DNA of 63,391 bases, filler included, from Kipferlia bialata (lineage: Eukaryota), in NCBI GenBank assembly GCA_003568945.1. It is 7 parts of 6 records of this genome, joined end to end, with 100 filler letters (N's around TTAATTAATTAA, not from the genome) between each part and the next. Parts side by side here need not be neighbours in the genome. Positions count along the whole stretch, not along the records: positions 1 to 12,304 come from BDIP01001101.1; 6 more parts are not named here. One strand, 5' to 3'. Position 1 is the stretch's first letter. Every line of letters begins with the position of its first letter. The notes beneath the pieces are model-generated. The model saw only the letters and a program-made list of their open reading frames with translations. It was not told the DNA's origin and searched no databases. Below, one piece after another: positions 3,952-9,900 of this stretch. The translations under genes were made by a program, and so were the position numbers.

Positions 3952-6900
3952 TGTCTATGTATATATGAATATTCATATATATACCACTGCCTCCTTTGGA
4001 CCCAGACTCCAGAGGCTAAGGAGATGCGACATCAGCCATAACAGGTATCAATACCAAGATACTAAGTATTGTTGCCCCATTTGCCCCATAATATCATTAC
4101 ATCAGTTGTAATTTTTTCCTCACCCCAGCCTGACTGAGTTCACCCCCCACCTGGCCTCTCTGATAGGACTCGAGACACTCGACATGTCACACAACAAGTG
4201 AGTGCAATATGGGGATAGTGTAGTATAGTGTCATACATATATACATATGTTTCTATAAAAAAAGGGGTATTCAGTTCTGGCAAGAGTACTCGCTGAAACC
4301 TCACTGCATACGGTTACATAATATGCTTCTTCAGTGGAGCCTTAAGCTAACGTCAGGCTTGAGACCCTCTTCGATGTCAAGAGCCTCTCCCACTGCGTAG
4401 GTAGATTAGACTAGTGATTCTCTTACAATATTTGCTAATTACTATCTCTTGGGTAGTTCTATATATTGAAATGGTTTTCGTATTGAGTGAATTGTCCATC
4501 TCCTTTGGTTCAATCATTATTTTGCTAGTGTCATTCTCCTAACTGTATCTTACTCTTTACTAGCTTCTCACCCCAGACATCGACGTGTCCTTCAATTATA
4601 ATTGTTCTCCTCTGTATGTCTATCACTCTTGTGTGTGATGGTCTCTGCCTCACCCCAGACATAGATGTGTCCTTCAACTCCATCAGTGAGATTCCCAGGG
4701 ACGCATTTGGCTACATGGTGAGTGCAGGACTTGCACAACCACATTACACACCCACACGTATATATTGTCAATGAATACACTAAGTATTATCTTTCAAATT
4801 TTTGTATTGCTGATTATATAATTTTGTATTTTTTGACTCCAGGGTCTGTCCAATGACACCCCCAGTTCCCCCACCAGATCCAACAGAACATACCCCCTGC
4901 AGGGGCTGACAAGGTACATTGAAGTATATTAATATATGTATATATATATACTAATTATTTATGCATTATGTGATCCAACATACCCCCTGCAGGGGCTGAC
5001 AAGGTCAGAGACAGTGCATATACTTCACTTCATATTCGTGTGTAATTCTAGAGTTCTTGTATTGATACAATAATGGTATAGGCATTACGATTGGACCATT
5101 CATAGGTAGTATTCGTCCACCCTTCTTCTAACCCCAGGCTAGTGCTGTCCAACAACCGACTCACATCGCTGCCAGAGTCCCTGTTTGCATGTGTCCCCAT
5201 GCTGGGTATGTAATGGTGTATAAGTATACATGTATGTTATCTATGTCCTAGTGGTTCCCATTACTTTTGTCTTACACTACTGCTCCTCTCATTCTCCATA
5301 TACAGTGTATATTCTCGGTGCAGATATAATTATTAGGACTGACCCCCTTCTTTGCCCCGACAACAGTATCAGTCCTATATCATCATTAGTACTTGTCTGG
5401 TATATACACATGGACTCTATTACTGCATGTATTCACTCACCACCAGAGACCCTTCTTTGCTCCGACAACAGTATCAAGTCCCTACCTGAGCACGCACTGG
5501 CAGTTGGGGCACCGCACAGTAGGTAGCACAGTCAGTCAGTATATTCAAGCTGGAACATATAATGTACCAACACTCACCTGTAGACTCAAGACCCTTGACC
5601 TTGCCTGCAATGACCTCACCACTCTGCCTGGGGAACTGGGACTAGTGACATCGATCACAAGGTATGGTATTGTAATTATTTCATTTATACATGTAGTTTT
5701 TAGTATGTAGATGTTCATTCATGTAGATGAAGTGTGTGTGTTGGTACTGTTGTGTCCCCTATATCTGACCCTAGGCTCCTAGCTGATGGCAATCCCTTCC
5801 GTTCCTTCCGAAGGAGTGTCCTGGACAGAGGGACAGCTGGAGTGCTGAGCTACCTCAGATCAAGACTCCCAGTAGGTATTGAATCACTACGTCTCATCTA
5901 TGTCTATATTATTTATTCTCTCCTCATTATATAATCAGATCCTCCCCAGTCTAGCCCAGGCCGAGGGCAAGGGTAGCATCTCTCTCTCATATATGTATAC
6001 ATATATAACCATATATATGTATATGTATATATTTACTAATCCGGCCACCCTGGCCTTGCCCAGGCCGAGGGCAAGGGCGGCACCTCTCTCTCTTATATGT
6101 ATACATNNNNNNNNNNNNNNNNNNNNNNNNNNNNNNNNNNNNNNNNNNNNNATGTATACATATATATAACCATATATATTTATATATGTGTATATATATA
6201 CTAATCCTAGGCCACCCCGGCCTTGCCCAGGCCGAGGGCAAGGGTGGTATACTTGATCAGGAAGAGGACAAGGATGCAGCCAGCAGGATAGCAGATGCAT
6301 CGAGAGGTTTGTTGGATATGTATACATAAGTACACACCTCGCTTACAACTGCAGGTCCATAGCATCTAAATGTAATCGAATTCAGTAATGTGACCGAGAT
6401 GCACAATCGTATTATATACATATTTATTATGTATATGTACACGTCTGACCCCAGGTGCCATGGACCTTGTCCCAGATGTCCACAACCTCAGGACAATCAG
6501 CAGGTGGGTACACTATACTATATGATATGTGCGTTATTCACCCAGTACCTAGTATTTAGAAATCTAGAATATGTTTGTTGTGCCAGATGTCTCTAGCCTC
6601 AGGACAATCAGCAGGTATCACTCATTACCATTTATCATGTGAACGGTGTATATGTCTTTAGTATACTGTAATACTAAGAAGACTAGACTTATGATTCTTA
6701 CCCCCAGACAGCAGAGTGACGTGTGTCTGAGTGGCAGACTACTATATATGTACTATATATGTATATTGTAGTGTAATACCCTTGCTACCTCTCTCACCAT
6801 CCAGACAGCAGAGTGACGTGTGTCTGAGTGGCATGAAGCTGGACAGAGTGCCATACGAACTAACCAGGTGTGAAATTATTACTTAGTCTCTATATGTAAA

Positions 6901-9900
6901 TATACATATATATATTGGTATATTATATCTATATATTAATATGTATACATTCATATCTATATGGCATGAAGCTGGACAGAGTGTCATACGAACTAACTAG
7001 GTATGTGGACCTGTATTGTTAGTGTTTTATGTCTCATACAAACTCACAAGTTTACTAATGTATCTCTGTTCTCTGAATTTGTGTTCATGGATATGTGAGA
7101 ATACATTCTCTCATCTTCATCTCACTCCAGCACCCCTGCTCTCTACACCCTTTTGGCAGAGCTGGACCTGTCGCACAACAGACTCGACAGCGCAGGTATG
7201 ATGTGCAGATGTACATCTACTATATTGTCATTTGCTGTATCATTCTCCTTCTTCCACAGCTGGACATACAATATATATTTGTCCTTTCACCCCAGGTCTC
7301 TCCCCCCTCACCTCTTCCCTGGGTCTCTTCACAGCCTTGAGGACACTGGACCTGTCACACAACCAGTACGTATATGCATATTTATACAACCACATTATAG
7401 ACACTACTATCTATCTTTTCACGTAAATGAGAAGCCCTCACGATACTGGATCAGTACGTATTCAGGGCACCATCTACAATTTATTGATTCTAAAAATTCC
7501 GATCACTGTGTCACACACACTCGGACAATAGTACATAAGATCAGAAGCTCCTATTGAATTTTGTATTGTTACTTGTCACACTTCATGTCTAAGTGTAATT
7601 TCTAGTGACTCTCACCATCAGCCTGTCCTCCGTTGACAATCACATTTCAATTTTGTATCCATGTACATTATTGTATGTATACACTTATGTACTGTACCCC
7701 TCACTGTCAGCCTGTCCTCTGTGGACAATGGCATTGGTGACTCCCCTGGCCTCACAGTCCTATCTCTGTCACACAACAGACTGGGCACCCTGCCATCCTC
7801 ACTGGCACACATCCATAGCCTAGTGACCCTGGACCTGTCATACAACAAGGTTAGTGTAGCGTACTCTATCAATTCATATATTGTATATATATACACTTGC
7901 ACACATACACTCTTTGGTGACACTGGACTTGTCGTACAATAAGGTTGGAATATGTATATACTATTGATCCTTCTGACCTTAGGTTCACCGACGCTGCCCT
8001 GTCGGGCATGGTCACATATACCATTAATATAGTGTACTATATACAAGATATATACATACTATATTACATAGTATAGAGTATTAGTATCAGAGATTTGTTT
8101 ATGTACAAACCTCTTTGCAGCCTATATTATTCCCCATACACTCACACCTAGTTCACCGACGCCGCCCTGTCCGGTATAGACTACCAGGGCCTGGGGGACC
8201 TGCAGACACTCAACCTCAGCCACAACAGGTGAGACTGTGTTATTGATATTGTAATATAAGTGAGTAATACATTGTTGGACCTAGAAACACTGCTCAGCCA
8301 CAACAGGTGGGACTGCATTAATACATATTTGTATACTAGTATTGGCACTGCAATGTAATGGCCTCATGTGTTCTCCACTCTTAATCCAGCCTCACCCCCC
8401 TGCCCGACTGTCATTCTCTCTCTCTCTATCGGTTTTCCCCCCTCCCTCTCTTACTCCAGCCTCACCTCCCTCCCTGACTGTCTGACCAGACTGGCCAAGC
8501 TCAGGGTGCTAGACGCATCTGGAAACAGAATAGGTATGTTTCATTACTAATTTGGCATCCTATATGTATGTGGATAGTCATTAGTTGAGCTGAGAGTGCT
8601 GGAGGTATCTGGAAACAGAATGATAAAAGAATAATAAGAATAATTGTATATTACCTGTTCAATTATACGTATATCATGTTTCTCTCTCGCTCTAACCCTC
8701 CAGTCTCCATCATGTCCAAGCCACACCGCCTTGTTAAGCTGGAGGAGCTCATCCTGGAGAACAACGACATATCGGACCTACCTCCTACCCTTGGTAAGTA
8801 TCAAAGTATTCATTCACTCATATATTGTGTTTACAATCACCTTGTGAGTATTTAGAGAACAATCATATCCCACCTGCCACCCACACTGGGTAAGTGGTAG
8901 TACCCAAATTTATTGATACGTTCACATCTATCTCGCCGTCTACCCATGTATATATGTATGTATATATATATATATACTGTACTAACCTCCAGGTCTGCTG
9001 TCCCCCGATGCCGATGCCCCATACGGTGGAGTACTCAGGTGAGAGTAGTATATAGACATAAGATAATGGTGTAAATGGATCAATAATCTATATATACTAT
9101 AGTCTTCCATATATTTGTGCATTGGGTGAATATGTATACACGTGGAAGGGCTAAATCATTTGCCTGAAAATACTAATCGATGTTCACGATATTCCTTGTA
9201 ATTTACCCCTAGGCACCTGAAGCTGAATGGCAACCCCCTCAGGAGACTGGGCCAGAGGGTGGCAGCCAGAGGGACAACACATATACTAGGTATGATATAT
9301 ATGTGTAAAAATACATATATTAGTATATATACATAGAGAGAGAGAGAGAATCATGTTGATATATACAGTCAGAGGGTGGCAGCCAGGGGGAGAACGCACA
9401 TACTGCGGACTGGTTGTGCATTCCTTACATACCCAGTACGTATCAGTTGATATGCATATGTATCAGTTGATATACCTCTAGTCTGACACCAGAGTATCTG
9501 TGCCACATACCTATACACATATATATATATATGAGGGATATTACTATAATTTATCCCACTCCAGAGTATCTGCGCCACAAGATCCGTGCCGGCACTCTGA
9601 CATCATTGAGGGAGGAGGATGGGCAGAGTGATAACGGGAAGGAGAGAGAGAAGGAGAGAGAGAGAGAGACTAGCAGGGCGAGGCCAGCAGAGAGGCTTGT
9701 AGTTATAGATAGTGGGAGGGAGAGGGAGAGAGAGAGCAGCAGGGGAAGCGGTCAGTCCTCTCCCTACTCACCTGACCAGTGGCACAAGAGGGGAGGGGAG
9801 AGAGAGAGGGAGAGATACTCTGAGAAGGACAGGGAGAGAGACAGATACTCTCAGAGAGAGAGGGAGAGGGAGAGAGCCACTGTGGGTAGCCGGGATGACT

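Follow-up and report, generated by a model that had tools for sequence, protein, structure and literature searches.

Short partial copies of exon edges, here termed echoes, lie in the introns of many genes in a 63-kb window of Kipferlia bialata DNA (63,391 nucleotides), which consists of small contigs joined by N-linker-N spacers and from which all counts given below are drawn. The preliminary description of this DNA dealt mainly with echoes in a leucine-rich repeat (LRR) gene of LRRC40 type located at 725-11537 on the + strand. We modelled this gene by hand as 30 exons encoding 919 amino acids (the 5' end is not modelled), with GT/GC-AG introns and a single open frame throughout. A search with one exon retrieved a 919-residue K. 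bialata protein (100% identity) encoded on a 12,304-base contig, and its full sequence agrees with the hand-built model; the first modelled intron starts with GC (802-807), consistent with the annotated protein. LRR Pfam families are present in the product, which is 28% identical to a Ciona LRRC40-like protein and 28-32% identical to LRRC40-named proteins across most of its first 660 residues, but which differs from these in possessing an extra arginine/glutamate-rich tail; it is a candidate orthologue of these. The finding described here does not depend on the identity of the host gene, which is incidental. Twelve further gene models were used, eleven of them resting on our own prediction, and three (MCM, class II aldolase and CoA-transferase) are confirmed by Pfam.

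Each exon was compared with both adjoining introns along all diagonals using codon-blind scoring, low-complexity matches were filtered out and copies with a score of at least 13 formed the main tally. This identified 84 echoes in 284 adjacent exon-intron pairs versus one in 594 non-adjacent pairs, indicating that the finder is specific. An anchored search adds seven echoes below the main threshold, carrying nine synonymous differences and five amino acid changes. The 84 echoes, found in 13 gene models, are same-strand copies, 48 of them downstream and 36 upstream of the exon in question. The junction-side exon edge is reached by 76 of the 84, the far end of the exon is copied by none and GT or AG is kept in register in 64. 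With a median length of 28 bases, independent of exon length, and a copy-to-copy spacing of 57-173 bases (median 103), the repeat unit comprises around 28 bases of exon edge and around 75 bases of intron, arranged in tandem at a spacing of about 100 bases. Each junction has between one and five copies and about a third of introns are affected, across many genes. Introns that bear echoes have a median length of 274 bases, compared with 101.5 bases for those without, and fall to a median of 90.5 bases when the units are removed; of the 28,098 intron bases in the 13 gene models, 8,539 belong to echo units. Only 11 short-range repeats are seen in the window outside the exon and echo classes, mostly echo-related, and the 15,798 bases outside the 13 gene models contain almost no 100-base tandem units.

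The intron flanks of echo and exon are strongly diverged, although they are homologous more frequently than expected by chance (at P ≤ 0.05 in 23 of 63 comparisons). The echoes at 1188, 4977, 6708 and 24931 match the exon perfectly for 27-36 bases, with adjoining intron flanks that are no more alike than background. The splice acceptors can be examined more closely. The 26 echo acceptors with an AG have a mean edit distance of 3.3 from the true acceptor (4.7 for unrelated acceptors), and their summed score is 96.7 as against 49.8 ± 11.6 under matched neutral decay, a value equalled in none of 3000 simulations. Echo acceptors have therefore diverged from the true ones, yet score as working sites.

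Evidence that the echoes are present in the genome comes from DNA contigs assembled separately from a sequencing run designated X1. Five records match 1503-5930 with no differences and no gaps at a depth of 393-424, and bridge nine echoes (at 1845, 2242, 2547, 2715, 3172, 3666, 4577, 4977 and 5345) at exon-like depth; the comparison ended at 5930, ahead of the echoes at 5941-8894, and run X1 may itself be the source of the window DNA. The run also contains 97% of sampled words of 3300-9400. These results speak against the idea that two or more haplotypes or strains were placed side by side during assembly, an artefact with which several facts would be in keeping: K. bialata has been reported to be diploid from the presence of two k-mer peaks (PMC5874029), the unit size is near short-read length and two N gaps adjoin echoes. 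We consider such an artefact highly improbable and take the echoes to be genuinely present in the genome as copies of exon edges together with the adjoining splice sites.

A contig from a second run (X2, which we guess to be RNA) skips GT-AG introns and matches the eight exons listed with no other letters, carrying the exon copy even where the corresponding echo, that at 3987, has five differing sites. At contig level only, the presumed RNA uses the innermost (exon) copy and not the echoes; contigs drop rare forms and variants. The echoes might still be translated in minor isoforms, as alternative or mutually exclusive exons, and be selected directly for that reason, as the 64 in-register GT or AG dinucleotides and the calling of five LRR gene echoes as in-frame exons by a permissive gene finder would suggest. 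Canonical splicing, however, could swap in only two of the 84 echoes, an in-register donor and acceptor pair across copies being found in just two of the 48 downstream echoes and in none of the 36 upstream ones. If whole exons had been duplicated and had then decayed, four geometries would be predicted, two of which are absent, and the exon letters of the presumed-RNA contig point in the same direction. Taken together, these observations make translated isoforms a very unlikely explanation.

How do echo and exon differ? From examples read by eye, the preliminary description claimed a strong synonymous bias between 3987 and 8894, and an unbiased full tally was named there as the way to refute it. 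In that span, a blind tally of the 15 echoes at the main threshold gives 34 silent to 14 non-silent differences by site (31:10 by codon), with the echo at 8864 (6:1) coming on top, so that the excess holds but not at the 23:1 of the chosen examples. The ten echoes in the span that had not been picked give 12:10, showing that the examples were extremes. The LRR gene as a whole gives 64:33 in 42 echoes, the 12 further gene models together give 54:32 in another 42 (18:4 in the MCM gene alone) and the 13 models combined give 118:65 in 84. When the seven picked echoes are left out, the ratio over the 13 models is 92:60 (P = 9e-5 against a 45% silent share), or 77:59 (P = 0.004) with shared variants counted once. 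The silent excess is real but weaker than the original examples imply.

The choice of null is important here. Decay of the echo alone would lead to 29% silent differences, whilst an exact copy that decays as the exon drifts silently would lead to 40-45% (about 45% at a transition bias of 4), making the earlier expectation of about 25% too low. Against 45%, the observed 118 of 183 (64%) has P = 4e-8 and, with shared variants counted once, 102 of 166 has P = 9e-6; the observed silent share is reached in none of 1500 simulations under the drift null, nor in any of 2000 at the codon level. Of the 57 junctions, 50 have differences, and 34 of these exceed 45% silent (P = 0.008), and the ratio of non-synonymous to synonymous differences per site (pN/pS) is 0.17. 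An annotation-free test for three-base periodicity, based on the spacing of mismatches modulo 3, did not reach significance, with 63/51/46 for exon-noncoding repeats (P = 0.06) and 104/109/93 overall, probably due to dilution by intron-flank mismatches.

Silent changes at first codon positions had been offered as a pointer to protein-level selection, but only 4 of 28 first-position changes are silent, which is not significant (P = 0.08 against 6%, P = 0.37 against 11%). A positional mutation bias can be rejected as the cause of the silent excess on the reasoning that introns have no frame. Protein-level selection itself finds support in the history of the echoes (64% versus 40-45%, with the excess repeated in the other genes), but there is no sign of present selection or translation. 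The non-silent changes look neutral (BLOSUM P = 0.19), with two stops where 2.2 are expected. As for decay with distance, also suggested earlier, the farthest echo of an array does carry more non-silent changes (13 in 445 bases versus 9 in 825 for the others, P = 0.02), with silent rates alike in the two groups (P = 0.31), but there is no trend with raw distance (rho -0.06).

The individual echoes, all on the + strand, illustrate this variety. The echo at 3987-4046, downstream of the exon end that it copies (3854-3911), has a GT donor, five synonymous differences and no non-synonymous differences, those at 3987-4044 being exactly as first reported. Upstream of the exon start at 4659-4677, an echo at 4577-4595 is preceded by its own acceptor and has two synonymous differences; the third change reported there (AAC>AAT) lies just beyond the end of the segment. 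The downstream echo of 4887-4913 at 4977-5005 is identical at 27 of 27 bases, after which come GT and an unrelated-looking intron flank, whilst the upstream echo of 5450-5476 at 5345-5371 has lost its acceptor and has a single, non-synonymous difference; these two and the echo at 4577 are bridged by a DNA contig. Two upstream echoes of the exon start at 6211-6247, at 5941-5974 (2:2 silent:non-silent) and 6044-6080 (2:0), adjoin an assembly gap. The echo at 6578-6616, downstream of 6467-6503, retains GT and has H>S (via a three-base change) and N>S. That at 6708-6736, upstream of 6805-6833, is identical at 29 of 29 bases with a different but consensus-like acceptor, and that at 6962-7002, downstream of 6829-6867, has GT and a 1:1 ratio.

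Further along the gene, the upstream echo of 7711-7735 at 7622-7646 has an acceptor and two synonymous differences; these were described correctly for 7622-7640, but the segment extends into a non-silent GGC>CAC (G>H) codon. The downstream echo of 7800-7849 at 7894-7945 has GT and encodes the same 17-residue peptide with nine codons changed, including AGC>TCT and CTA>TTG. Its first few codons are in CA-rich sequence, where chance may contribute; the changes earlier listed for 7917-7943 are present, within a longer echo (7894-7943). The upstream echo of 8152-8177 at 7984-8009 has three synonymous differences out of three, again as first described. A short downstream echo of 8215-8228 at 8293-8308 is identical and has GT; the upstream echo of 8460-8482 at 8390-8412 has an acceptor and a 2:1 ratio; the downstream echo of 8498-8531 at 8588-8621 has lost its donor (3:2). 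The anchored search recovered the echo at 8864-8894, which lies downstream of the exon whose last base is 8793 and has GTAAG and, within 8864-8889, the six synonymous changes and one non-synonymous change (D>H) previously noted.

Outside this span, the two synonymous differences claimed for 1488-1530 and the AGG>CGG at 606 are also present. An N gap (1387-1477, in the region 1303-1530) separates exon 2 from the echo at 1488-1530, and both encode the same peptide; the presumed-RNA contig was placed on this echo (joint 1528 to 1734) in a comparison limited to sequence downstream of exon 2. In the MCM gene, three downstream echoes of the P-loop exon end (50112-50159) occupy 50219-50459, each with GT, and all 12 of their differences are silent, although a few are in the first bases, where a chance match is possible. 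Four upstream echoes of an exon start at 32582 occupy 32200-32514 and have at least three different acceptors.

The copies thus differ in the way that two functional alleles would, showing both a silent excess and splice signals of working type. The silent excess, the diverged yet functional-scoring acceptors and the neutral-like non-silent changes, commoner in the outermost copies, indicate that the divergence of echo from exon took place when both were functional and that the echo decayed only later. The simplest source of such a diverged copy would be a diverged homologous chromosome, and we think it rather probable, though by no means assured, that echoes are displaced remains of older alleles, left behind by break repair that copied from the homologue. 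According to this model, a break falls within an exon, near its edge, and the broken end would invade the homologue within the exon, as no other sequence there is well matched. Synthesis would then copy the homologue's exon edge, its splice site and part of its intron; re-annealing across the diverged intron would fail, and the end would be rejoined by end joining of the polymerase theta type. The incoming piece would now serve as the working junction, whereas the resident edge would be pushed into the intron, along with the splice site formerly used, as an echo. Silent differences would represent allelic (or homeologous) divergence accrued whilst both versions worked, non-silent differences would mostly reflect later neutral decay, and duplications ending within the exon would be purged. 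One short shared stretch, which may represent microhomology at the new junction, is seen by eye at the first MCM echo; in general the junctions are too diverged for a count.

The repair proteins reported for this group of organisms are compatible with such a scheme. Fornicates are described as lacking non-homologous end joining (NHEJ) as well as Rad51A whilst possessing Dmc1 paralogues, and K. bialata has PolQ, Dmc1, Rad52 and Msh2 entries in the supplement of the same study (PMC8516963); Dmc1 is reported to tolerate mismatches (PMC8682777). Echoes may be tolerated because splicing selects the pair of sites that yields the shortest exon, that is, by exon definition (exon and intron definition are described in PMC3488318); it is the inner site that is used, and the exon is then as short as possible, which makes this a likely reason. 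Two other sources of the copies were rejected: paralogous templates for the LRR gene, as no close paralogue (and no second allele) was found among the 120 best matches, the next-best protein being 27-32% identical, and insertion of an Introner-like element with target-site duplication, which would not yield silent differences.

An alternative is that echoes are exact tandem copies kept under purifying selection by often recombining back into the exon, through collapse or gene conversion, in the manner of silent donor cassettes. Short direct repeats about 100 bases apart would be ready substrates for this. Variants among the copies show all four gametes at three of five (non-independent) site pairs, a mosaic that a single tree cannot accommodate and that also favours repair from a homologue, and MCM echoes 2 and 3 share one junction and differ only silently. 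However, exon-to-echo collapse is seen in none of the 15 joints listed (of 25), contigs being prone to drop rare forms, and the non-silent changes look neutral, stops included. A conversion rate high enough to be selectable would also be expected to erase silent differences unless diversity were very high, a premise that this alternative therefore shares with repair from a homologue. We regard it as unlikely, without dismissing it.

It could also be that each echo reproduces the old junction exactly and has barely changed, the working copy evolving three to four times faster through error-prone synthesis plus selection or a higher exon mutation rate. A three- to four-fold faster silent rate in the exon reproduces a 62-67% silent share, which matches the observed ratio and so counts against repair from a homologue, and the old acceptors would be expected to be intact. 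Differences between echoes, 26 of 45 of which are silent, do not speak against this account and weigh against repair from a homologue: this share beats 28% (P = 4e-5) but not 45% (P = 0.06). Against this stand the separation of echo and exon by only about 100 bases within one transcript, the misfit of identical exon parts beside unrelated intron flanks with a single error rate and the difficulty of obtaining nine silent codon changes in 17 codons in one mutagenic step. This too seems to us an unlikely account, with a rather small chance of being correct.

Several further points weigh against repair from a diverged homologue. The second allele is not seen: about 2 kb are covered by a single DNA contig at flat depth, without other letters, although contigs drop variants. 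Nor is the template observed, as searches of runs, proteins and metagenomes found no other K. bialata strain; in the metagenomes, 48 pattern matches were obtained, none confirmed, and a second scan gave none. A mixture of sister and homologue templates should overdisperse the silent counts, but per-echo counts are not overdispersed (chi-square P = 0.28; a refit agrees), the score threshold trimming the diverged tail of these counts. The echo at 7894 is near saturation, which is deep for alleles, the silent share does not differ significantly between echoes with intact and lost splice sites (P = 0.23) and the model offers no explanation for the narrow unit size. Errors in the 11 gene models that rest on our own prediction would add noise. 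The diverged versions could be alleles from an outcrossing population or, alternatively, homeologues derived from an old hybrid, which look alike in these data.

Of known types of repeat, a junction-spanning minisatellite (variable number tandem repeat, VNTR) is similar in having an exon end and donor in tandem into the intron, but the K. bialata echoes, examined in one sample, have one to five units, diverged intron parts that are often at background level and more silent differences than the drift null allows. When introns are gained through the tandem duplication of an AG/GT site, there is likewise an internal duplication that alters intron DNA, whereas echoes lengthen an existing intron and make none, with donor and acceptor in register in 2 of 84. 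Mutually exclusive duplicated exons are tandem exon copies with silent divergence, whereas echoes are partial copies with a single splice site and do not appear in the presumed-RNA contig. In Caenorhabditis elegans, loss of helq-1 and BRCA1 is reported to produce tandem duplications by end joining of failed synthesis-dependent strand annealing (SDSA) intermediates (PMC8654963). These resemble echoes in being head-to-tail and in the proposal that an extended break end is joined by polymerase theta, but are described as exact copies from a sister template that arise in mutants and range in size from about 100 bp to 10 kb, with a median near 1 kb (PMC8654963); those in K. bialata have units of 57-173 bases, are positioned at splice junctions, occur in a wild genome and show allele-like differences. 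In the hypervariable fungus Schizophyllum commune, crossovers are reported to prefer exons when homologues are strongly diverged; the available text describes clean crossovers and not duplicated exon edges, and high diversity was measured there, whereas it is only inferred in K. bialata (PMC4209137).

The echo pattern is not reported in the available text of the genome paper for the species ('duplicat' and 'tandem' have no occurrences) or of PMC6679479. No report of allele-like silent divergence in junction copies was found by title or abstract start, in a search that left most subscription journals uncovered. Junction-spanning and failed-SDSA duplications are already known kinds; the allele-like silent divergence in the copies appears to be new. 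A bolder proposal, which we hold only tentatively and doubt as a whole, is of an ongoing genome-wide cycle in which mismatch-tolerant, Dmc1-only repair swaps junctions between highly diverged homologues, archives displaced alleles in introns in age order, sometimes re-uses them as donors and supplies about 30% of intron DNA, with splicing by exon definition in a protist with short introns. If echoes do stem from repair off a diverged homologue, a single assembly would be a readable record of past alleles in a protist for which no population data were found, and intron growth would have a concrete, countable mechanism, tied to the atypical repair machinery of fornicates, with neither NHEJ nor Rad51A. 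Echoes also provide natural decoy splice sites, consensus-like and about 100 bases outside those used, that bear directly on exon versus intron definition.

A number of other features of the window may be mentioned. An Rfam search gave no matches. A copy of about 100 bases (offsets 93-101) extends across the LRR gene stop codon and 3' untranslated region at 11518-11626; it is echo-sized and has an alignable flank but is not at a splice site. At 16630-16700, an old acceptor and exon-start copy of the exon at 16772 can be made out by eye, below our thresholds and with many amino acid changes, and is possibly derived from a paralogue. The class II fructose-bisphosphate aldolase gene (27412-28405, - strand) has a GC content at third codon positions (GC3) of 0.88, a median intron length of 68.5 bases and echoes in none of its four introns, possibly reflecting selection against intron growth at high expression, although this is a single gene only. 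The CoA-transferase family III gene (53933-57070) is intron-rich; an exon near 56490 without a clear AG acceptor by eye was excluded from its model. Finally, an in-frame repeat of around 30 bases, in four copies, is located within a predicted exon at 40080-40180 and encodes an AASVSDPVT-like peptide.

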